Source of the DNA: an uncultured Gemmatimonadota bacterium
GTDB lineage: Bacteria; SM23-81
DNA: 51,166 nucleotides
NCBI GenBank assembly: GCA_964584035.1
Contig: CAZOYL010000003.1
Span: forward strand, 1 to 51,166
Direction of reading: 5' to 3'
A model generated the notes under the pieces. The model made no database searches, had not been told where the DNA came from, and saw nothing but the letters and a program-made list of their open reading frames with translations. The translations under genes were made by a program, and so were the position numbers. Position 1 is the first letter of the stretch; every line of letters begins with the position of its first letter. Positions 1,622-51,166 of this stretch are shown here, in pieces.

Positions 1622-4600
1622 TCAGCGCATGACCACCACCTTTCCATAGGCCTCGGTCTGCTGACTTTCAGCCCGCGCGATGATCTTGTAGAGATAGACG
1701 CCGTTGGCAATCTGATCGCCGTCCTCATCATCCCCTCTCCAGGGACGGCTGAGGTTATATCCACCGGGTCTCTCCCCCTCCCGCAGCGTGCGGATGAGTC
1801 GTCCGGCCACGGTGTAAATCTTAATGGTCACTTCCGCCGGACGGCTGATCTCGTAAGTGAATTCGGTAGGCTCCGAGCGGGGATCGAAGGGATTGGGACA
1901 GTTGAGGACATTTCGCAGTACCAGCTGGTTTCCCTCCGAAATCTCGAGGTCCAGCAAGCTGGTGGAAAAATTATTGAAATTATCCCAGGCCTTTAAGACC
2001 ACCTGATGAGGACCCGGCAAGAGTTCCGACAGAGTATATTCCAGACGGCCGGTTCGATAGCTGCCGGAATCATATTGGAACCGGTCGGTCAGATTGATCT
2101 GCTGTTGCCCGTCATCGACCAGCAGAACGATCCAGTGTCCCACCTCTCCGGTGATATTGATGCCGTTCTCATCCTCCAGCTGCGCCTCAATGCCAGGATT
2201 GGCGGAAGTGAAATCTCCGGATCCGAACGACTGTCCGGCGATGGTCAGAGTAATAACGGGCCCCGTCGTATCGGCCACGGCTGTGGCCGTGCCGCCGACG
2301 GACAGGGAGTCCCGGTAGGCCAGGCCGTCGCGTACTCCATCGCTGCCATAGGCGCTGATATGCGCTTGATGCCCGCCGTAACTGATGTCTTTGGGCACCA
2401 CGAAGGTGGCTTCAAAACGTCCCCGGTTTACGGGACAGCTGCCCCGAAAGATGGAGGTCCCGGGGAGCAGGTAATTGACCGTGGCCCCGGCCTCGGTGGT
2501 GTAAGACGTCGGCCTGGCCGAGTCGAACACCTGGAGAAAGACCGATCCTGAGAAAGAGGAATCCGGCTGTCCCCCGGACAGCAGTTCTCCCTCCAGGCTA
2601 AAATGATCCAGCGCTCTGAGCGAATCGCTGGAAAGATTCATCAGACGTCCCTCCAGACGTGGACGGCCCAGTTTCATGCATGGATCCCCGAACAGAGCGT
2701 ACTTTTGATCATTGCTATAGGAGGTGGGCCGGTTCATTTTAGCCCCGAACAGCGCCTGCCCCAGGGTGAGCTCTTCCTCGCCGAGAGCCAGGCGAAGGGT
2801 CTCCTTGTTCAGCTCGGCGTTGGGTGTGGCGAAACAGGAACGTGTCGCCCCGATAGTGGCCACGGCGCCCCGATCTCTGGCCCGGAGAAATTCCTCCGAC
2901 ATGGACTCGTTAAGCGTGTGGTCGAAGCGCCCCACGTCGCAGGAGGCCGAGTAGACCAGCGGCAGCCGGCGCCCATTGGACAGCCGGGGGATATCATTGG
3001 AGCCCCGAAAAGCATCCTCATGGGCCCAGACATCGAAATTTCCGTGCCCGATCCAATTGATCCACAGCATACCCTGGTTGAAACCATCGATAACGGCCTG
3101 CTGGGCCTGTGGTTTCTTAAGCGACCAGTCCATCGGGTATTCCATCAGGTAGACCTTGTGTTGATCGTAGGATGGGGGTATATAGTGGAGCGCCAGATCC
3201 TCGCTGTCACGGGTGTGAAACAGTTCGTTACCCTCGCCGCTGGCGGCCGTCTCATCATCGGATACGATCATCACCCGGTTGCGCCATGGTCCCAGGAGAG
3301 GATCCTGGACATAATCGAGGATCTTTCCGACCATGATATCGGCCTCCGCCGCCGAACGGACGGGCAGGCGCCCGATCATCAGATCGGCCGCATAATCGCC
3401 GTCCAGGCGCACGAACCAGTCTTCGGTGCAGAGATCGCCGTTTTCAAAAGGCGGCACCCAGTTGCTCCCGCCGGCGCCCGAATTATTCTTATAATCGAAG
3501 TTCCCATCACCAAATAGCAAAACGTATGCCGGGATCGGCCCGGCACCTGAATTATACAAGTACCAGAGATAATCGCGGATGGCGGTGGGATCGATCAGCC
3601 CCCAGGAGAACTGATCGTAGACATCCTCGATATCGGCGATCACCACCGTCAAACCCTCGTCCCGATGCAGCTGGGCCAGCGGCTCCAGGCTTTCCCGAAA
3701 AACCTCCGGCGTGATCATGATACAATCGCCCTGCTGCGTCCGAAGATCTTCCGGGATGCGCCGTTCGATCGAAATCGGGCTCACCAGGACGTTTTCACCA
3801 GCCGCATAATAGGATCTGGTTTGACCATCGTCGACGATGTCCTGAAAACGGAGGGTGATCTCGTCGCCCGCGATCACATTCTCGCCTCCGACGATCTCCG
3901 CCGGATTCCAGGGATCGGTGATGTCCAGCAATCGCACAGCCGGCTGAGTAAATCCCTCCAGGTCGAACTGTATGGTCCCGGAGGCCTGAGGGCTGTTGAA
4001 AGCCAAGCGGTTCTCCCAGGTCCGATACCCCCGCCAGTATTCGATCTCGAACCAATCGAACAGGATGTGATCCCATTCCGATTCGGCCCGAGGCAATGTG
4101 ATCTTGAGGACATTATCTCCTTCCCGCAGACCGGCGATCTGCTCCTCGGCAGTAATGACCAGGGCGCCATACCAGAAGCGCTCGATGGCCGGATCGGCGC
4201 TTTCGTTGAGATAGATATAAACATGGTGCGGGATGGAGGAAGGGACCGTCGCCCGCGGTGGATAATAGATGCCCTTGACCCGCAACTTCAGTTGACATTC
4301 CTGACTCTCGATATCGTGCAACGTGAAGCGATGTTCCTCGGTCTCGGCGTAATGACCCGCCATGCCATCCCAATACCAGGTCAGGCCGGAATAATCGGAG
4401 TTGAGAAAATCTTCTTCCAGGTGTGCCAAAGTGCGAAATTGCCGGGCCGGAATATAGGACGCCGATTGCGGAGCTCCCGAACGGCTGGTCCATCTGAGAC
4501 CGGCACCACCGCCGTAGGTCAGCCAGTAAACGTTGAGATCCGTAAAGGGATTGGTGTATTCGGCAATGCCCGCCTGAGACATCTCCTCCCATCCGTCCAG

Positions 4601-5632
4601 ATCTGTGGCATAGAAGAAAATTTCATCTTCCGCGTCGAAAAAACCATCATCGCCATCAGAGACCCGGATGGGTATCTGCTCCATGATCGGAGGATCGCCC
4701 ACCTGGCGCGGCAGCACTTTCCGGCCCATGTGATAGATCTTGATAGTCGCCGGAGTCACCTGCGACAGTTCGAGGCCGGCCTGACTCATCTGCTCGCCGG
4801 TCAGACGGCAGATCCCGGCCTGGCGAAGCGCAATGCGAAACCAGTCGTCCGAGGTGGCGAAGGGATCATCCTGTTTCGTAAATGACTTGGCCTGTGGAGG
4901 CGTCCGACGCCAGCGGCGTGATTGTTCCGCATTCACCAGGGCAGCGCGATAGATCGGCTCAAAGGGATCATTTCGAGGCGGCGATGGCTGCGCCTCATCG
5001 CTGGCCGTAAAAGAGACGGCGATGACGACGCGATGATGAACGCGAAGCGTGCCACTGACCGGATTCCACTGCGCCGGCAAGATTTCCAGCGGCAGAACCC
5101 TCTGATGCCGGAGGAAAACCGCCCCTTCGGACCGGCAAATGTTCCCCGGAAAGAGGGCATCTTTTTCGTATATGTCCGGATCGGGCCGGTAGATTTCCCG
5201 ATACAGAGACGATTCGTCCGCCCCCTCGCGAACGAGCTGCGGACCGGGTGCCAGCCGGATGCTTTCCTGATCCGAGTATTCGTCCTCCAGCAGGGAGAAG
5301 GTCACCGGGCCCTCCGGAGGCAATCCGATGCTGACCGCCTTGACCGGCAGCAGGGGCGCCCCCTCCTGGATATTGCTGCCACATCCGGGAATCGTGATAC
5401 GCTGGTAGCCCGGCTCTCCCTTCACCGCCGGCACGGGCGAGATGGACACCTCGGTAGTCTGAAACTCGATGACCAGGCCGCCCGGGGTTGATTCGAGCAA
5501 CCGCACGGTGATCGCTGAGGCCGCTCCCGGCGGCACTGCCAGCAGCACTACAACAGCCGCCAGCAGCGAGATGCCGAATCCGGAATGGCTTCGTGCCGTC
5601 CGAATAAGAAAAAAGCCGAGTGACAGGGACAT
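1622..5632 (-). CDS. porU: Peptidase C25 (gingipain-like) with C-terminal T9SS sorting domain; probable T9SS sortase PorU
   Basis: Catalytic-type motifs WINWIGHGNFDVW (His) and VYSASCDVGRFD (Cys). The C-terminus …NGVYLYKIIARAESQQTEAYGKVVVMR looks like a T9SS CTD / FlgD-Ig-like domain. Adjacent to porV. I place the start at ATG 5632 (MSLSLGFFLIRT… signal peptide, RBS AAGGGGG 6 nt upstream) rather than at the track ORF start 5815. Confidence 0.7.
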   Translation of the reverse strand: MSLSLGFFLIRTARSHSGFGISLLAAVVVLLAVPPGAASAITVRLLESTPGGLVIEFQTTEVSISPVPAVKGEPGYQRITIPGCGSNIQEGAPLLPVKAVSIGLPPEGPVTFSLLEDEYSDQESIRLAPGPQLVREGADESSLYREIYRPDPDIYEKDALFPGNICRSEGAVFLRHQRVLPLEILPAQWNPVSGTLRVHHRVVIAVSFTASDEAQPSPPRNDPFEPIYRAALVNAEQSRRWRRTPPQAKSFTKQDDPFATSDDWFRIALRQAGICRLTGEQMSQAGLELSQVTPATIKIYHMGRKVLPRQVGDPPIMEQIPIRVSDGDDGFFDAEDEIFFYATDLDGWEEMSQAGIAEYTNPFTDLNVYWLTYGGGAGLRWTSRSGAPQSASYIPARQFRTLAHLEEDFLNSDYSGLTWYWDGMAGHYAETEEHRFTLHDIESQECQLKLRVKGIYYPPRATVPSSIPHHVYIYLNESADPAIERFWYGALVITAEEQIAGLREGDNVLKITLPRAESEWDHILFDWFEIEYWRGYRTWENRLAFNSPQASGTIQFDLEGFTQPAVRLLDITDPWNPAEIVGGENVIAGDEITLRFQDIVDDGQTRSYYAAGENVLVSPISIERRIPEDLRTQQGDCIMITPEVFRESLEPLAQLHRDEGLTVVIADIEDVYDQFSWGLIDPTAIRDYLWYLYNSGAGPIPAYVLLFGDGNFDYKNNSGAGGSNWVPPFENGDLCTEDWFVRLDGDYAADLMIGRLPVRSAAEADIMVGKILDYVQDPLLGPWRNRVMIVSDDETAASGEGNELFHTRDSEDLALHYIPPSYDQHKVYLMEYPMDWSLKKPQAQQAVIDGFNQGMLWINWIGHGNFDVWAHEDAFRGSNDIPRLSNGRRLPLVYSASCDVGRFDHTLNESMSEEFLRARDRGAVATIGATRSCFATPNAELNKETLRLALGEEELTLGQALFGAKMNRPTSYSNDQKYALFGDPCMKLGRPRLEGRLMNLSSDSLRALDHFSLEGELLSGGQPDSSFSGSVFLQVFDSARPTSYTTEAGATVNYLLPGTSIFRGSCPVNRGRFEATFVVPKDISYGGHQAHISAYGSDGVRDGLAYRDSLSVGGTATAVADTTGPVITLTIAGQSFGSGDFTSANPGIEAQLEDENGINITGEVGHWIVLLVDDGQQQINLTDRFQYDSGSYRTGRLEYTLSELLPGPHQVVLKAWDNFNNFSTSLLDLEISEGNQLVLRNVLNCPNPFDPRSEPTEFTYEISRPAEVTIKIYTVAGRLIRTLREGERPGGYNLSRPWRGDDEDGDQIANGVYLYKIIARAESQQTEAYGKVVVMR

Positions 5633-5889
5633 CCATACCCCCTTTGCCAACCCGGCAAGATGATCGATCGAGATGTTGATTGGATTGCTCGCTAAAGGGA
5701 CTCTTGTGTTTTCCAGGATGATATCTACTGGATATCGGCGATCTACGGGGAATATCCATTGCCCCGATACAACACTACCCGACCTGACAGTCCGCAACCG
5801 GGACGAAGCCCGCAAGAACCCTTTAGCAAATGAATGCCTCTATAAACCCCCTTCTGAAGAGACGCAATCACGACCTCTCTTGTTTTTAG

Positions 5890-42053: not shown

Positions 42054-42449
42054 CTATCCCTCCTCTTCGACGGTCTCGAGTTCACTCTCTTTGTCGGAAA
42101 TTCCCGATCTATCAAGAAATTGGATTCTGGCCGCTTGAACCTCTACCACATGGTGAGTCTGTCCTTCCTGACTTTCCCAGGAGCGGCTTCGTAAACGTCC
42201 CTCCACCAGGAGGGGACTTCCTTTATGGAGAAACTCGCCGCAGAGGTCGGCCCAGCGACGCCAGGCCACTACGGTTACAAAGGTCTCCTCTTGTTGCCAG
42301 TCTCCGTTGCTGTCTCGATACGGAAGGTTGACGGCTATTCGAGCATTACAGACCGACAGACCGTCCTTAATCTGTTTCACCTCGGGGTCCCGGGTCATTC
42401 GACCGATGAGGATTACATGGTTGAGATGAGGCAGTCTGAGCTTGGCCAT
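42054..42449 (-). CDS. ssb: Single-stranded DNA-binding protein (OB fold) with a short atypical C-terminal tail
   Basis: LNHVILIGRMTRDPEVKQ…FVTVVAWRRWADLCGEFLHKGSPLLVEGRLRSRSWE OB-fold core. Start at ATG 42449 behind AAAGGAGAT. The tail ends …ELETVEEEG with no Gly/Pro-rich linker and no D-D-(I/L)-P-F tip. Confidence 0.85.
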   Translation of the reverse strand: MAKLRLPHLNHVILIGRMTRDPEVKQIKDGLSVCNARIAVNLPYRDSNGDWQQEETFVTVVAWRRWADLCGEFLHKGSPLLVEGRLRSRSWESQEGQTHHVVEVQAARIQFLDRSGISDKESELETVEEEG

Positions 42450-42520: not shown

Positions 42521-42536
42521 GGCAAGGACCATGCCA
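42521..42536 (-). promoter_or_regulatory. Candidate sigma-54 promoter (-24 TGGCAT / -12 TTGCC) upstream of ssb
   Basis: The minus strand reads TGGCATggtccTTGCC with canonical GG-to-GC spacing. It has the same -24 and -12 hexamers/pentamers as the site at 48550..48566 and lies about 70 nt upstream of the ssb ATG. Confidence 0.5.
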
Positions 42537-42750: not shown

Positions 42751-44163
42751 TCATCCTCTTTTCTTGCCTTGTCTGACTCGTCTATCGAGTCCATATCGCA
42801 GTATTTTCTTATCCAGACCTTTACGACTTAATCCCAAGGCAGTAGCTGTTCTGCTCTTGTTCCAGTTGTTTGCTTTCAACGCCTCCAAGATGAGATCCCG
42901 CTCAAGCCCAGCCACTTTCGATTTTAGCGGGCTGCTCTCTTCAAGGCTGCTATATCGCTGTATATGATCTGCGTCATGAATCTCTCGGGAAACATACTCG
43001 ATGGTAATATTCGAGCCGCTACCCACGAAGGTGACCATCTTTTTAATCTCATTCTCCAACTGGCGGACATTCCCGGGCCAAGAGTAATTGACCAATAAAC
43101 TCATGACATCTTCCTCAATTCTACCTACCTGTTTGCCGACCTTGCTGCTGTAGGATTGGAGAAAATGATCGGCCAGTAGAGGAATATCTTCATTCCTCTC
43201 CCGCAGTGGGGGCAGTTTTATATGGATGACGTTCAATCTATAGTACAGATCATCGCGGAAACGCCCCCTCTTGACCTCCTCCTTCAGATCTTTATTGGTC
43301 GCCGAGATGACTCTCACATCTACCTTGCGATATCGAATCTCACCGACCCGTTTAATCTCTCCCTCCTGAAGAACTCTCAGCAACTTGGCCTGGGTGCTGG
43401 CATTGATATTACAGATCTCATCGAGAAAAATCGTTCCGCCATTTGCCGCCTCGAACAAACCGGTTTTGTCGCGGGTGGCACCCGTGAAAGCGCCCTTCTG
43501 ATGTCCGAAGAGCTCACTTTCAATGAGATTTTCAGGAAGCGCGCCGCAATCGACGGCAACAAATTTCTGGTCCTTTTTCCATCCATTGAAGTGAATCGCT
43601 CTGGCCACCAGCTCCTTCCCAGTTCCACTTTCCCCCTCCAGAAGCACTGGAGCCGGGCTTGCCAGTACATCTTTAATTATGCGGTAGACTTCCTGCATTT
43701 TATCACTTCTACCGATAATCTTATCGAAGCAGTATTGATTTTCAACCTGTCTTTGCAAATAAACATTTTTCTGCTGCAGGAGTTTTCTTTCAAGGGCACG
43801 ATTGACAGCAATCAGTATTTCATCGATGCTGATGGGTTTGACAAGATAATCATAAGCCCCTTCACGAATGGCTTCGATAGCCGTCTCCAAAGATTCATAG
43901 GCGGTCATCATGATCACGGCGATATCCTTATTCACCTCTTTGATCTGCCGCAGCACCTCAATGCCGTTCTTACCTGGAAGACGTATATCAAGCATGATGA
44001 CATGGTAATATTCCGGATCCTTGGCGACTCTATCAACGGCCTTTAGACCATCAGCCAGGAGATCAACCTGAAAACCTTGTTCACTGAGAACTTTCTTCAG
44101 AAGTTGACGCATATTGACTTCATCATCAACAACCAAAAGATGTCTGTCGCCTTCCTCAGTCAT
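42751..44163 (-). CDS. Sigma-54-dependent response regulator (NtrC family: REC + AAA+ + Fis-type HTH)
   Basis: REC domain (LLVVDDE…MLDIRLPG), GESGTGKE Walker [22 protein letters not shown] Walker [11 protein letters not shown], and C-terminal HTH …[26 protein letters not shown] 44163 overlaps the kinase stop by 8 nt. Confidence 0.9.
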
Positions 44164-45637
44164 CACTGGCAGCCACTCCTTTCCTGCTTTCGACAAAGGG
44201 GAGCAAGACCGTTATTGTCGTCCCATTGCCGATCTGGCTTTCGACTTCAATCCGGCCGCCATGCTCCTCGATAATCCGATGGCTTATGTAAAGACCCAAC
44301 CCTCTTCCACCACTTTCAGCCCTGGTCGTAAAAAAGGGCATGAATAATTGTTGGAGATGTTCCCTGGAAATACCACAACCGGTATCATCAAATCGCACGG
44401 CGATATATCGTTTCCCGCTTTCCCCAACCCATATGCGGGATAGGAAATTTCGATCTCTTCCGGAAGGGTCCCGAATCATCAAGGTCGATATCTTAAGGTG
44501 TCCTCCTTGAGGCATTGCTTGAAAAGCATTCAAAATGATATTCACGAAAACTTGTTCTAACTGTTTCAGATCTCCCATAATTTTTTGATCTTCATTATTT
44601 TCCTCGAGGACAACGTCCACATTTTTCGATCTGCTTTCATATTTAAGCAATGATATAGCATTCTTAATAATTTTTTGAAGATAGAGAATTTCAATCTGCG
44701 CTCTCGGTTTGGAAAAATCTAGGTATTCTCTGATGGTCGATTTGCATCGTCCTGCCTCTTTGTTGATGATCTCAACACCTTCCCGCATGGGATCATCTTT
44801 GGGGACCTTTCTCAACAGATAATCGCTGTAGCCCAAGATGACGCTCATAGGATTATCGATCTCGTGAGAAATACCTGCGGCCATCTGACCCACCGCAGCA
44901 AGTCTTTCAGAGCGTATCAACTGGTCCTGCATCTTTTTAAGATCCATATACTGGCCGTAGGCTTTTCTGATAAGCAAAACCGGGAGGAGAAGGAGAAGAA
45001 TGGCCCATTTACCCAAGGCAAAATTAACCATCACCATCAGATAACCGATGGCCGACAGGACCACCAGATAAGGAATGGTCCAGGAATGATTCTTCAACCA
45101 AATTGCTTTTGGAGAAATACCTTCGCTGAGGCCAATGGCAATACTAAGAAGACCGCTGTTTAAAAGAAAATAGACCGCAACCGTGAGGATAAAAACGAGG
45201 ATAAATTGGGGAGCTTCTATGAAATTGATCGTATCGGCCAGGCTGTGAAAAATCCACGAGGATACGCCCATGGTCAGCATGAATAGGGCGATATTGAAAA
45301 GAATTTTATACAGCGGAGCGCGACGGAGCACTAGCGATGAAGACAATGCACCAAGCACTCCGTATAACATAGCAATTGAAGGGCCAAAGAGCATTAATAT
45401 TGGAATGTCAACAGCCGTACCTATGGATAGGCAACCACGTAATGGTAATTGTATAACGAAAGCTTCAGAGATAATTACAGCAACTGCCCAAAAAATAATT
45501 TCTTTTGCATTAATACAGAGATATGTCGGTATGTTGAAAGAAAAGAAAAAGAAACCCGAAAATATAGCAGTCAATAGCCATATAAGAAATAGAAATGCTC
45601 GGCATTCTTTTGATAGATTTCCAAATTGCATTGGCAT
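44156..45637 (-). CDS. Sensor histidine kinase with polytopic N-terminal membrane domain
   Basis: About 230 aa of TM helices, then the HisKA H-box AAGISHEIDNPM and an HATPase_c domain (…NAFQAM…, DTGCGI, GGRGLGL). Confidence 0.88.
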   Translation of the reverse strand: MPMQFGNLSKECRAFLFLIWLLTAIFSGFFFFSFNIPTYLCINAKEIIFWAVAVIISEAFVIQLPLRGCLSIGTAVDIPILMLFGPSIAMLYGVLGALSSSLVLRRAPLYKILFNIALFMLTMGVSSWIFHSLADTINFIEAPQFILVFILTVAVYFLLNSGLLSIAIGLSEGISPKAIWLKNHSWTIPYLVVLSAIGYLMVMVNFALGKWAILLLLLPVLLIRKAYGQYMDLKKMQDQLIRSERLAAVGQMAAGISHEIDNPMSVILGYSDYLLRKVPKDDPMREGVEIINKEAGRCKSTIREYLDFSKPRAQIEILYLQKIIKNAISLLKYESRSKNVDVVLEENNEDQKIMGDLKQLEQVFVNIILNAFQAMPQGGHLKISTLMIRDPSGRDRNFLSRIWVGESGKRYIAVRFDDTGCGISREHLQQLFMPFFTTRAESGGRGLGLYISHRIIEEHGGRIEVESQIGNGTTITVLLPFVESRKGVAASDD

Positions 45638-45667: not shown

Positions 45668-46990
45668 TCATGCCTTATTATTAACTTTATGCTCTTCGAC
45701 TGATACTTCACCATTATTAATTAATTCAATGAATACTTTAACTATTTCTGGATCAAATTGTTTTCCTAATCCCTTATGCAATTCTTGGATAGCTACTTCA
45801 ATAGGTAACGCAGGCCTATATGGTCTATCCGAAGTCATTGCATCAAATGCATCAACTACTCCAAGTATTCTCGCTCCGACAGGAATCTCCTCTCCCTTAA
45901 TTCCATCGGGATAACCCAAACCATCATACCTCTCATGGTGATGACTGACATATCCTTCTGCTTTCTTCAGAAATTTTAATTTTCCGGCGATTTCGGCACC
46001 CATGTTGGGATGCTTTTGCATCTCGCGATATTCGCGATCGTTCAATCGACTTCTTTTCCGCAGAATGCTTCTATCAATACCTATTTTCCCGATATCGTGG
46101 AGGCGGCCCGCAAACTCAATCGATTCGATTTCCCGCTCACTCAATCCCATGGCTCGTGCGACCTTTTTTGCATATTCCGTCACCCTGTCCGAATGACCGC
46201 GCGTGTAGGGATCGCTGGCATCCAGGGCAGAAGCCAGGGCGGCTATGGAATCGAAATAGGCATCACGTAATTCCATGTACAACTTATATACATATCTTGC
46301 TAAAGCCAAAGGTGCAAAAATTGAAAATATCGCTAACCAACCATATCTGGTAAACAAAAGAGCTACAACTAAACCAAGAGGTGCTAAAATTAAATCATGG
46401 CTTACAGTCCATTTGAAATCGACATACCACACTCTAAGCGGTGAAATTTTCTCAGTCAATCCAATTATTGAACAAGTTAATGCATTGTTAACGAAAAAAT
46501 AAGTTGGGACACACGCTATGAACGGTAATATTATTTTAATATATGGAATATTTGCTGGTGAAATAGTCCTTAGAATAACGCCACCTAATAGTACATATAC
46601 AACAGCTGCAGAGCCGGCAGTAATAACATATTGACTAGAATTAAAAAGCAATTTGTAAAATGGTACTCTTCTAGCCAACCCTGAACTTACTAGCGCTTCT
46701 AAAAGACCAAACCATATTGCTAATTGAGGGCCATATAGAATAATAATAGCAAAGTCTAATGCTGCAGTTACAGTGACAAAAGCTCCTCCCCTTGGGGTAT
46801 TAATTACAAATTTCTCTGCAGCGACAACTAAGACAGCCCAAAGAAATATCTCCCACCATTTTCCTGGCCATTGCTTCTCTATCAATGGCTCAGAAAGATA
46901 AAAAAGCATAACAATTGCAACTGCTGAAACAACAGTTATAAATATCCACGAAGATATTGGTAGTGGTGATTTACGAAAAGATAATATCAT
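45668..46990 (-). CDS. HD-GYP domain c-di-GMP phosphodiesterase with polytopic N-terminal membrane domain
   Basis: HD-GYP motifs RGHSDRV, LHDIGK, HHERYDGLGYPDG and DAFDAMTSDRPYR. The N-terminal roughly 230 aa are membrane-embedded and homologous to the kinase N-terminus. Confidence 0.88.
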   Translation of the reverse strand: MILSFRKSPLPISSWIFITVVSAVAIVMLFYLSEPLIEKQWPGKWWEIFLWAVLVVAAEKFVINTPRGGAFVTVTAALDFAIIILYGPQLAIWFGLLEALVSSGLARRVPFYKLLFNSSQYVITAGSAAVVYVLLGGVILRTISPANIPYIKIILPFIACVPTYFFVNNALTCSIIGLTEKISPLRVWYVDFKWTVSHDLILAPLGLVVALLFTRYGWLAIFSIFAPLALARYVYKLYMELRDAYFDSIAALASALDASDPYTRGHSDRVTEYAKKVARAMGLSEREIESIEFAGRLHDIGKIGIDRSILRKRSRLNDREYREMQKHPNMGAEIAGKLKFLKKAEGYVSHHHERYDGLGYPDGIKGEEIPVGARILGVVDAFDAMTSDRPYRPALPIEVAIQELHKGLGKQFDPEIVKVFIELINNGEVSVEEHKVNNKA

Positions 46991-47061
46991 CTTTCTTTCG
47001 ATTCTGTATATTTAAGTATAAATGGATGTTATAAAAAAGACCGACATCTTTTACCATTTCA

Positions 47062-47130
47062 TTACCAGCCGCCCTTGGCAGCCAGACTCTCAACAACAGT
47101 CGCCAAGAAGACAATGATCGAAAACAACAT
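47062..47130 (-). CDS. Candidate 22-aa hydrophobic small protein
   Basis: Too short for the ORF track. ATG 47130 is preceded by GAAGGGGGG 9 nt upstream. Translation is MLFSIIVFLATVVESLAAKGGW*. It lies 71 nt upstream of the HD-GYP start. Confidence 0.35.
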   Translation of the reverse strand: MLFSIIVFLATVVESLAAKGGW

Positions 47131-47350
47131 CAGTACCAACCCCCCTTCTTTGTAAGCTTTGATTTGGTACAAGTCAAAGCTCGCTCCGCTCGGGTTGATA
47201 CCGCTTCGCTTCGGTAAAAGCAGATGCCGGTCTTTTTATGTCATATTTTCTTTTCTTGACTTGGAGACCGCGCCGACTGATCTTTCGCCAAGATCAGTTT
47301 TCCAATCAGGTCGGTCTCTCCTGAGTCAATAACCCTCCTCTGGAATCGGA

Positions 47351-47379
47351 AAAATAGGCCGTTAAGCCCTTTTTGTCAA
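47351..47379 (-). promoter_or_regulatory. Candidate sigma-70 promoter TTGACA-17-TATTTT for the small ORF / HD-GYP / kinase / regulator unit
   Basis: The minus strand reads TTGACAaaaagggcttaacggccTATTTT, followed by a roughly 210-nt hairpin-rich leader. Confidence 0.45.
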
Positions 47380-47482: not shown

Positions 47483-48211
47483 CTAATTGAGATAGATATT
47501 CTCAACCAGGGTTCCCTTGGCCAGCATAACCCCCTGTTCGACAATATTACGTAATTCTCTCACGTTCCCAGGCCAATCATGCATGAGGAATTGGGTCCGT
47601 GCTTCCTGAGAAAAACCCCTTATCAATTTTCCATATTTCACTTTAAATTCTTGAAGGAAAAGATCCGCAAGTGGCAAGATCTCCTCTCTCCGCTCCCTCA
47701 GGGGTGGAATCTCGATATGAATAACATCCAAACGATAGGCCAACCTTTGTTGCAATTTTCCATTAGCTTCCAGATTCGTATCTGCCGCGTAGGCACATAT
47801 CAGCCTTGGCCTAGCGTTGCACTCTGAATTGCCTAAAAGGCTTAAAAAATGTTGCTCCTCTAATAACTCCAGAAGTTGCAACTGATGCTTCAGATCAACT
47901 TCCTCCAGGGATTTCAAAAATACGGTCATTGGAGCATCCACTGCATGTTCACAAACACTCTGCTGAAAAAGTTCCCTGATCTTAGGAAAATCCATCTCTG
48001 TATCGTGACAGTGATACACTCGAAAATTTCTCTCCTCCGGATCCCGTAAACGATGAATCTTTCGTGCCAAGTGTTCCTTACCAACTCCGTTCTCACCCAC
48101 GATAAGCACATTCGCGTTTACGGTGCTGGCTCGTTCAGCCAATCTGTAGATACCAACCATCCCCGATCTCGAACAGGCAACATTCAGAGCGATATTATAC
48201 ACTCTGCTCAA
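47483..48211 (-). CDS. Stand-alone degenerate sigma-54-activator-like AAA+ domain protein (no REC, GAFTGA, Walker B DE or HTH seen)
   Basis: GENGVGKE Walker A, PPLRERREEILPLADLFL and WPGNVRELRN are retained. Where the neighbour has GAFTGA…IFLDEI, this protein reads ELFQQSVCEHAVDAPMTVFLKSLEEV. It ends 21 aa after sensor II. The start is uncertain (TTG 48211 or GTG 48202). It could be a decaying gene remnant. Confidence 0.7.
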   Translation of the reverse strand: MSRVYNIALNVACSRSGMVGIYRLAERASTVNANVLIVGENGVGKEHLARKIHRLRDPEERNFRVYHCHDTEMDFPKIRELFQQSVCEHAVDAPMTVFLKSLEEVDLKHQLQLLELLEEQHFLSLLGNSECNARPRLICAYAADTNLEANGKLQQRLAYRLDVIHIEIPPLRERREEILPLADLFLQEFKVKYGKLIRGFSQEARTQFLMHDWPGNVRELRNIVEQGVMLAKGTLVENIYLN

Positions 48212-48241
48212 CTCCCATTTCAGCTATATGGAGCGACAAAC

Positions 48242-48493
48242 TCAGAGAAGCCCGCCAAGCACGATGATGGCCAGCTCGATATTGGATAACGTGAGAGCTG
48301 CCTGAGCGCCTGGTTGAGAATCCGCTGGCGCTCCAATGTGAACTTTTTGATCATTTGCACCAACAGGTTCCGGATCACCCATGGGACCGGCCCAAAGAAT
48401 CGAATTCCACAACAGGAAGAGAACGAGGCTCAACAGTAATACCGGCTTCAGATATTTCCCGCATCCGTTCTGTCCAGAAATCGCTTCCACCAT
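48242..48493 (-). CDS. Small (83 aa) predicted membrane protein
   Basis: Start at ATG 48493 behind AAAGGGGGTG. Hydrophobic segment PVLLLSLVLFLLWNSILWA and hydrophobic C-terminus IELAIIVLGGLL. It is the first gene behind a sigma-54 promoter. No family recognised. Confidence 0.5.
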   Translation of the reverse strand: MVEAISGQNGCGKYLKPVLLLSLVLFLLWNSILWAGPMGDPEPVGANDQKVHIGAPADSQPGAQAALTLSNIELAIIVLGGLL

Positions 48494-48549
48494 CTTGAGC
48501 ACCCCCTTTCGCGTTACAGGCTGAGTTTCCATCGGTGCTCATTAGTATT

Positions 48550-48566
48550 GGCAAATACTATGCCAA
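48550..48566 (-). promoter_or_regulatory. Sigma-54 promoter (-24 TTGGCAT / -12 TTGCC)
   Basis: The minus strand reads TTGGCATagtatTTGCC with canonical spacing. It follows a terminator directly and lies about 55 nt upstream of ATG 48493. Confidence 0.6.
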
Positions 48567-48571
48567 GGGAT

Positions 48572-48603
48572 AAAAAAACCGTTAGGTAAAACCTAACGGT
48601 TTG
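48572..48603 (-). terminator. Rho-independent terminator
   Basis: The minus strand reads CCGTTAGGTtttACCTAACGG followed by TTTTTTT: a 9-bp perfect stem and 3-nt loop. Confidence 0.75.
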
Positions 48604-48912
48604 ATAAATAAATAGTTATAATATTTAATGCTCTTCGTGCCGGTGAGCCTCAGAAAAAAAGTGGGGCATTTCACCACCGATATCTGCGAAATGACCCACC
48701 TATAAAAAACAGAATTCCTGTGATATCTCTTTAACTGTACAATACACAGTATATTAGATATTCGCTGCTTTTACCGACTCTAAACGCCAAGACATTCTCA
48801 AATCCAACATAATAGTTTATATTACAATAAGTTAGAAAGTCGCAGATTTTAAAATTCTGTCCAGTCTTTCCGCCTTGTGGTCCAATAGAACTGTGATATC
48901 AGATCGATCACC

Positions 48913-51001: not shown

Positions 51002-51166
51002 TCAACTTTTCCAGGCTTTTCTGCTAAATAATAGCAAAACCGGCAGGATCTCTAATCGCCCAGCCAGCATCCCAAATATGTAGACTATTTTAATACCGGG
51101 ATGGAGTGATCCCATCTCAGCAACGGGAATGTAGCAGGGACCGATGTTGCCCAATGCGCTGAACAT
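51002..51166 (-). CDS. trkH: TrkH/KtrB-family potassium transporter, C-terminal 54 codons (partial, runs off the window)
   Basis: My reverse-strand translation …FSALGNIGPCYIPVAEMGSLHPGIKIVYIFGMLAGRLEILPVLLLFSRKAWKS* matches the usual TrkH C-terminus (GRLEI…). It lies directly upstream of trkA. Confidence 0.7.
   Translation of the reverse strand: MFSALGNIGPCYIPVAEMGSLHPGIKIVYIFGMLAGRLEILPVLLLFSRKAWKS

Follow-up and report, generated by a model that had tools for sequence, protein, structure and literature searches.

We analysed a 51,166-nucleotide (nt) stretch of DNA (positions 1 to 51,166 of contig CAZOYL010000003.1, assembly GCA_964584035.1, from an uncultured Gemmatimonadota bacterium; the whole stretch is called the window below) and focused on a minus-strand gene at 47483..48202 that encodes a stand-alone AAA+ protein of the sigma-54 activator type. 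The protein has lost the sigma-54-contact loop and the Walker B pair, it belongs to a family that shares these lesions and is kept under purifying selection, and its gene follows a small peptide gene behind a conserved sigma-54 promoter. We give nearly an even chance to the view that this dead AAA+ protein may modulate a full-length activator of its own gene cluster by co-assembling with it. That its influence would be negative, i.e., that it would serve as a brake subunit, is a less probable addition to this view.

The protein comprises 239 amino acids (aa) when translated from the GTG at 48202. The original prediction had assumed a 242-aa protein starting 30 nt after the upstream small open reading frame (ORF), and such an ORF indeed exists from an alternative TTG at 48211, but all orthologs begin with MY(N/S/G), which makes the GTG start, 39 nt after the small ORF, and thus the 239-aa form likelier. 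The Pfam scan gave just the core and the lid, with matches to Sigma54_activat (PF00158, E 1.6e-19), Sigma54_activ_2, and AAA_lid_14 (E 6.9e-20). The comparison with the Sigma54_activat model resulted in a match split into two stretches. Response_reg and HTH_8 had no Pfam match in the protein, which ends 5 residues past the lid match, in agreement with the earlier description of an AAA+ domain without a receiver and without a helix-turn-helix (HTH). The neighboring NtrC-type activator with a canonical GAFTGA, a candidate partner found by Pfam scan and alignment (481 aa; 42751..44196, minus strand), has Response_reg, Sigma54_activat (E 1.8e-71), the lid, and HTH_8, and a pairwise alignment of the AAA+ protein with this regulator gave 32% identity. 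By sequence, the closest solved structures are NtrC1 ATPase domains (E ~3e-37). An AlphaFold2 model calculated from the family alignment reached a predicted local distance difference test score (pLDDT) of 75.7 and a predicted template modeling score (pTM) of 0.72, and its best fold matches were NtrC1, ZraR, LuxO, PspF, and FlrC, with template modeling (TM) scores of ~0.68.

When the protein was aligned to the NtrC1 structures and to the neighboring regulator, GENGVGKE (Walker A), PPLRERREEI, and WPGNVRELRN (sensor II) were found to be present, whereas 11 residues spanning GAFTGA were missing and FLDE of Walker B was changed to FLKS. The retained and the lost motifs named in the original prediction were thereby confirmed. 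We extended this to a motif census of 26 family members, in which some motifs were scored on 25. Walker A, GE[NS]GVGKE, was intact in 25/25, PPLRER was present in 26/26, and the sensor II Arg of WPGNVREL was kept in 24/25. All 26 members have the 11-residue deletion of L1/GAFTGA, and all 26 have a Lys in place of the Walker B Asp; the Walker B Glu is a Ser in 24/26. Losses that had not been listed before concern the switch Asn, whose position is occupied by R, H, P, or Y, the sensor I Thr-Asn, which reads [C/S][E/V] with E or V for the Asn, and the first Arg finger, which is mostly Gln. The second Arg finger is an Arg in 17/26 members, and a Tyr beside the Arg fingers, on the finger helix, is present in 26/26.

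In sigma-54 activators, L1 with GAFTGA contacts sigma-54 and the −12 DNA, and the Walker B E108 together with the switch Asn couples ATP hydrolysis to L1 (PMC7175178). From these established motif functions it follows, as had been proposed, that the protein would be expected neither to hydrolyze ATP nor to remodel sigma-54. The conserved P-loop and sensor II suggest that nucleotide binding is retained. As the protein has no sigma-54-contact loop, no Walker B pair, no switch partner, and no DNA-binding or input domain, it should be neither an activator nor a classical transcription factor. Annotation pipelines name the family 'DNA-binding NtrC family response regulator' or 'sigma-54-dependent Fis family transcriptional regulator', and neither name agrees with the domains that were found.

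A search of 5.8 billion proteins resulted in ~26 clusters of the AAA+ family, with lengths of 218-277 aa (most 218-256) and 47-87% identity, and the full-length members, at 205-463 bits, were clearly separated from the best ordinary activator at 143 bits. In a profile search of 1.84 billion 50%-identity representatives, only P0019 and fragments scored above the background of ordinary and double-AAA activators (P0145 is a chimeric fragment). As only one full-length representative exceeded this background, the family is narrow. A scan of GTDB species genomes with generic patterns was swamped by ordinary activators and gave no true family member, which is no evidence of absence. The ratio of nonsynonymous to synonymous changes (dN/dS, Nei-Gojobori) of the AAA+ gene was 0.17 in comparison to the ortholog of locus L089 (87% identity, dS 0.39; the related loci are numbered with the prefix L) and 0.12 in comparison to that of L001, with values of 0.04-0.12 for the neighboring trkA and DUF4919 genes. 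The AAA+ gene is therefore under purifying selection, and the truncated form has conserved orthologs.

These data also bear on the alternative, already raised in the original prediction, that the gene is a decaying duplicate, or more generally a pseudogene or an annotation artefact without function. The loss of several catalytic motifs would suit a relic, as would a Pfam match that is split and weak in comparison to that of the neighboring regulator (71 vs 240 bits), but the ORF is intact and of similar length in ~26 clusters down to 47% identity, the same lesions recur in all members, including the invariant Lys at the Walker B Asp position, dN/dS is as low as 0.12-0.17, and promoter, ribosome-binding site, and gene order are conserved along with the gene. 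We therefore regard a relic as very improbable. In a neighbor-joining tree, the AAA+ family was monophyletic on a long branch, with distances of 0.73-0.75 to the NtrC-type regulators of the cluster, to the giant activators described below, and to unrelated activators alike, whereas those groups are separated from each other by ~0.5. This equidistance excludes a recent duplication of the neighboring NtrC-type gene or of the giant activator. In conjunction with the low dN/dS, the long-branch monophyly and equidistance identify the protein as an old, fast-diverged, and later stabilized paralog, and neither as a recent copy of one of its neighbors nor as a pseudogene.

The −24/−12 box TGGCATAGTATTTGCC (48550..48565, minus strand) has the spacing of TGGCAC-N5-TTGCW, with GG at −24, GC at −12, and a gene downstream; transcription would be expected to start near 48540, and 72 nt separate the box from the ATG of the 83-aa ORF. 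Judged by the window alone, the box is statistically not significant, as a scan that allowed one mismatch gave 7 matches versus 3.0 expected, and 4 of 100 shuffled sequences reached 7. However, all related loci that were examined (~14 distinct loci) have an exact TGGCAY-N5-TTGC 61-81 nt 5' of the small ORF ortholog, and the synonymous sites of coding sequences are saturated at the divergence of the loci carrying it. This comparative evidence, which is far stronger than anything that the window alone can give, argues that the predicted sigma-54 promoter ahead of the small ORF is real.

The promoter is directly preceded by a 12-bp hairpin with a T run (48572..48602, minus strand), which was found by the terminator scan, resembles an intrinsic terminator, and abuts the promoter, in line with the strong terminator that had been noted at this place. 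Of 14 distinct loci, 11 have the hairpin and its T run, and the changes between them are compensatory or compatible with G.U pairs. The element behaves like a genuine terminator that would insulate the sigma-54 promoter from upstream transcription. In the window, its left arm also matches the consensus of the integration host factor (IHF) when read by eye (TATCAAACCGTTA). Further upstream, at 48661..48699 on the minus strand, lies a 39-nt inverted repeat, GTGGGTCATTTC-N15-GAAATGCCCCAC, as a candidate enhancer (upstream activating sequence, UAS) of the promoter. This palindrome is present in eight loci, namely the window, L001, L003, L004, L006, L087, L089, and L090, with a near-match in L091, and L092 has a diverged copy at the usual position and a second copy further upstream. 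In all seven loci in which the distance was measured, the palindrome center is 115.5-118.5 bp away from the −24 GG. This distance is fixed although the intervening sequence is not conserved, which would fit an enhancer that is held in phase with the promoter. Its arm spacing of 27 bp is unusual, its spacer is asymmetric and conserved, and in an alternative reading, it may form an RNA hairpin. The gene for sigma-54 itself, rpoN, is not among the genes of the 51,166-nt window, and its presence in the genome is implied by the two full activators of the gene cluster.

The first gene behind this promoter encodes the 83-aa peptide (48242..48493, minus strand) and has a strong ribosome-binding site, AAGGGGGTG, in front. 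The peptide had been described as a protein with two hydrophobic segments. In the window, it has both an N-terminal hydrophobic segment and a C-terminal hydrophobic tail, but only the first segment is conserved among the orthologs, and the C-terminal tail is not universal. In an alignment of seven orthologs, the N-terminus is basic and is followed by ~20 hydrophobic residues, an invariant A-G-P-x-G-D-P-E-P, and a variable remainder that is acidic and rich in proline. By eye, the N-terminus resembles either a Sec signal peptide with cleavage behind the invariant Ala or a signal anchor. In one sub-lineage (L004:7569-7892, L006:7556-7873, L094, and L096), the peptide contains two tandem units of the type [hydrophobic]-(I/T)GP(M/Q/I)GDPEPAPP(V/I), and this duplication suggests that the AGPxGDPEP motif, and not the remainder of the peptide, is the functional element. 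The dN/dS values of the peptide gene were 0.37-0.43.

A profile search with the peptide resulted in 28 clusters, at least 11 of which share the longest-contig size with a dead-AAA+ match, and at least 13 of the loci examined carry both genes. By this co-occurrence across clusters and loci, the peptide gene and the AAA+ gene are a strict pair. The gap between them is 39-147 nt long across the loci and contains no terminator. The two genes are likely co-transcribed.

A loose resemblance to psp-type membrane-stress modules, which the original prediction had drawn from this layout, did not stand up to closer inspection. Pfam and NCBIfam scans of the small protein (83/96 aa) gave zero family matches and zero Psp domains, no PspA, PspB, or PspC domain was matched in the AAA+ protein either, and conservation of the peptide does not extend to its second hydrophobic segment. 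The PspF model TIGR02974 scored 108 bits on the AAA+ protein, with a cut-off of 443. What the module has in common with PspF/PspA is an activator AAA+ without a receiver, a sigma-54 promoter, and a small membrane protein. However, PspF is an active ATPase with GAFTGA and HTH, and its inhibitor PspA is not an AAA+ protein.

Selection has thus kept the P-loop, sensor II, the lid, and the overall ring-forming fold, while the activator functions have been lost, which suggests that the protein acts via its AAA+ core on a full activator. In the circuit that we propose, sigma-54 and an activator would switch on the operon for the peptide and the dead paralog, and the dead paralog would then use its AAA+ core to form mixed rings with a full-length activator encoded in the same cluster. 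With each dead copy, a mixed ring would lose one L1 loop and one catalytic site, and it would consequently have an altered number of functional sigma-54-contact loops and ATP sites. As the gene itself is sigma-54-dependent by its promoter, negative feedback, with the dead protein as the brake subunit, would be the simplest circuit.

Two candidates for the ring partner are encoded in the gene cluster, namely the kinase-paired NtrC-type regulator and a giant activator with Ser/Thr-kinase, STAND, TPR, and GAF parts. The giant activator is 1690-1740 aa long and comprises Pkinase, AAA_16 (STAND), TPR, GAF, Sigma54_activat, and HTH_8. Its gene is found upstream of the module wherever a contig reaches that far (e.g., L087:2529-7622, L089:518-5596, and L003:1380-6524); in the genome of the window, it would fall beyond position 51166. 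This kinase-fused protein is the most constant full activator near the module. Walker A, Walker B, and the Arg fingers of the giant activator are intact, and in place of GAFTGA, its L1 has a strictly conserved, non-canonical ELFGIEE[KR][IV]ATGV, the [KR][IV]ATGV part of which resembles the GVATGV variant reported for DVUA0100. In locus L092, the histidine kinase, the NtrC-type regulator, and the single-stranded DNA-binding protein (SSB) gene that usually follow the module are missing, while the core module is kept, and the partner therefore need not be the NtrC-type regulator.

Several observations weigh against our proposal. The family is equally distant (~30-34% identity) from both candidate partners. 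The partial conservation (17/26 members) of the second, trans-acting Arg finger fits a brake, but it would also fit a protein that no longer enters rings. The Lys that invariably replaces the Walker B Asp points to a specific new role. Roles beyond activator feedback are suggested by the company that the gene strictly keeps, namely an exported-peptide gene, an HD-GYP gene, and a unique RNA.

The sign of the effect could also be positive. As an obligate partner, the dead protein would be a structural, non-catalytic member of hetero-rings that the giant activator needs for assembly or promoter specificity, which would result in feed-forward or positive feedback; we regard this as rather unlikely. 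Such a role would agree with the giant activator being the constant neighbor, whose own L1 is non-canonical yet strictly conserved, and with the P-loop, sensor II, the invariant finger-helix Tyr, and the partially kept second Arg finger of the dead subunit. The closest known parallel is FleT from Cereibacter (Rhodobacter) sphaeroides, with which the dead protein shares the restriction to the central AAA+ domain without an N-terminal domain or HTH, the (here predicted) inability to activate alone, and a gene on a sigma-54 promoter. FleT keeps GAFTGA and the ATPase residues, whereas the dead family has no GAFTGA loop and has exchanged the Walker B DE to KS. The dead family also forms a separate long branch without a detectable specific sequence relationship to FleT, and instead of flagellar genes, its genomic neighborhood has the genes of an exported peptide, an HD-GYP protein, and a giant kinase-fused activator. 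FleT has been described as an enhancer-binding protein that lacks only the N-terminal and DNA-binding domains, its expression needs FleQ and sigma-54, and it forms hetero-oligomers with FleQ (PMC11999139; PMC10084136), and it changes the promoter class used by FleQ (PMC11999139). As a sigma-54-induced AAA+-only protein that shifts the promoter class recognized by its partner, FleT is a precedent for the positive role, and hetero-oligomerization with a full-length activator is the mode that we propose, by analogy, for the dead protein. However, without GAFTGA and the catalytic residues, the dead protein would contribute neither sigma-54 contacts nor ATP hydrolysis to a ring, so that each copy would cost the ring one L1 loop and one active site, and such mixed RedR complexes are inactive.

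RedR1/RedR2 and HrpR/HrpS are examples of paralogous activator AAA+ cores that co-assemble. When one partner of RedR1/RedR2 is in an inactive form, it blocks the other, active one via the central domains, a demonstration of the 'poison subunit' principle on which the brake would be based. In these pairs, however, both partners are complete and catalytically competent, with GAFTGA and HTH, and inactivity is conditional, not hard-wired. Activators without GAFTGA have been described as atypical enhancer-binding proteins, namely VpsR, TyrR, PhhR, HupR, HsfA, NtrX, and the Caulobacter NtrC, and VpsR also has a degenerate Walker B, with ND for DE (PMC6158489). They resemble the dead protein in having an activator-type AAA+ domain without a functional GAFTGA, but they keep a DNA-binding and usually a receiver domain and act at sigma-70 promoters, whereas the dead protein has neither a DNA-binding nor an input domain.

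The dead protein could also act outside activator rings, as a decoy or adaptor. It would then titrate an anti-activator, as HrpG does when it relieves the inhibition of HrpS by HrpV, or it would be a nucleotide-bound switch, with ATP or a second messenger as the ligand, that is tied to the peptide, the HD-GYP protein, and the RNA. The conserved P-loop and sensor II would be in agreement with a switch, and so would the fact that the peptide gene, the RNA, and the HD-GYP gene accompany the dead AAA+ gene without exception, even where the kinase/regulator pair is missing. Furthermore, some activator-type AAA+ domains, such as that of FleQ, bind cyclic di-GMP (c-di-GMP). Of the FleQ residues R144, R185, N186, E330, and R334, only R185 is conserved in the family, and this residue is generally conserved in activators; the positions of R144, N186, E330, and R334 are occupied by S/N/G or absent, Q/K, L/V, and E, respectively. 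A FleQ-type c-di-GMP receptor could therefore be rejected. As there is also no recognizable anti-activator gene in the cluster, and the peptide has a short cytoplasmic N-terminus without conservation, we consider a decoy or adaptor role about as improbable as a positive partnership, and co-assembly with modulation of a full-length activator is the view that we prefer.

Sigma-54 activators are a textbook model of mechanical work by AAA+ rings, and mixed rings with defective subunits have until now been laboratory constructs that serve to count how many working subunits are needed. In clamp loaders, the delta' subunit is a degenerate AAA+ paralog that is kept as a fixed, non-hydrolyzing member of a hetero-oligomer, but it belongs to a different AAA+ clade and process. 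To our knowledge, a non-catalytic subunit of this kind has not been reported for sigma-54 activators. Literature searches for a GAFTGA-less and HTH-less activator paralog, and for the Pfam name of PF14532, gave no description of a stand-alone family with a dead Walker B. The AAA+ protein combines two departures that are known separately, the restriction to the AAA+ domain (FleT) and the loss of GAFTGA in atypical activators (VpsR, TyrR), and a dead subunit that joins and tunes a real activator would be a type of regulator not previously described for the sigma-54 system. If our view is correct, a natural, conserved, and hard-wired dead subunit would mean that bacteria use the mixed-ring trick for regulation, and it would be a ready-made tool to probe ring stoichiometry. 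The most far-reaching version, which we consider possible but doubtful, is that the protein would be the first pseudo-ATPase known to occur naturally in a sigma-54 activator ring. It would be a dedicated, sigma-54-induced subunit that co-assembles with the giant activator and sets the ring stoichiometry and hence the output, as part of an undescribed cassette of an exported AGPxGDPEP peptide, the dead subunit, a unique peptide-encoding RNA, and a MASE9 HD-GYP protein. The anatomy and the conservation of the protein are solid and the idea can be directly tested in vitro, whereas its function is inferred, and it comes from an uncultured lineage that is narrow.

The order of elements in the constant core is enhancer-like palindrome, terminator, sigma-54 promoter, peptide gene, dead AAA+ gene, RNA, and HD-GYP gene. 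Wherever the sequence of a locus extends downstream, the AAA+ gene is followed on its 3' side by a conserved intergenic region of ~500 nt and then by the HD-GYP gene. In the window, this region contains a sigma-70-like promoter, TTGACA-17-TATTTT (47351..47379, minus strand), which was detected by the promoter scan; its box AGAAAAGTGTTGACAAAA is conserved in eight loci and lies ~130 nt upstream of a structured RNA of ~200 nt (47033..47235, minus strand). This RNA was recognized in alignments as near-invariant, and its first ~65 nt are almost invariant even where the proteins of the loci are only ~50% identical. The predicted consensus fold has a 16-bp closing stem with a U run and a 12-bp stem that would sequester the Shine-Dalgarno sequence of an enclosed 22-aa ORF, MLFSIIVFLATVVESLAAKGGW (47062..47130, minus strand), and the apical hairpin shows compensatory changes. 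The 22-aa peptide ends in a conserved AAKG[GS]W, and its sequence is maintained by synonymous changes. Rfam gave zero matches at gathering scores in the window and only chance-level matches in the intergenic RNA, and all eight metagenome matches to the core motif of the RNA are located beside a member of the dead AAA+ family. The RNA may serve the HD-GYP gene as a leader-peptide attenuator, or it may be a small RNA with a dual function or an mRNA similar to those of type I toxins. The contigs of L003, L004, L005, L006, L089, and L096 end within or just after the RNA and the HD-GYP gene start, and the assemblies may break there as co-existing strains share the near-identical RNA.

The HD-GYP phosphodiesterase gene (45668..46990, minus strand) was assigned by Pfam scan, and its translation keeps the HD and HHExxDGxGYP motifs. 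The protein shares its N-terminal MASE9 membrane domain with the histidine kinase encoded next to it (44156..45637, minus strand; also assigned by Pfam scan), and it is a speculation that the exported AGPxGDPEP peptide might be a periplasmic modulator of MASE9. Most loci continue with the MASE9 histidine kinase, the NtrC-type regulator, a second sigma-54 promoter, and the SSB-like gene. In the window, the second box, TGGCATGGTCCTTGCC (42521..42536, minus strand), is found upstream of the SSB-like gene at 42054..42446. It is conserved in L001, L088, and L099, with a hairpin and a T run directly upstream. The palindrome of the first promoter is absent at this second sigma-54 promoter, which instead has GAGTAyTT..TAC repeats upstream, and these different repeats suggest that it is served by a different activator.

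The SSB-like OB-fold protein encoded at 42054..42446 (minus strand) has a C-terminus without the usual acidic ...DIPF tip. In L090, an IS1595-family transposase gene (L090:16220-17170, minus strand) is inserted between the NtrC-type regulator and the usual position of the SSB gene. The window further contains a cluster of cell-division and cell-wall (mur and penicillin-binding protein, PBP) genes and is therefore chromosomal. Its RecG has 56-61% identity to proteins of Zixibacteria and Gemmatimonadota, which points to an uncultured relative in the FCB group. At 1622..5815 on the minus strand, the window encodes a 1397-aa gingipain-type Peptidase_C25 with a propeptide and, at the C-terminus, a weak FlgD_ig-like match that stays below the Pfam cut-off.

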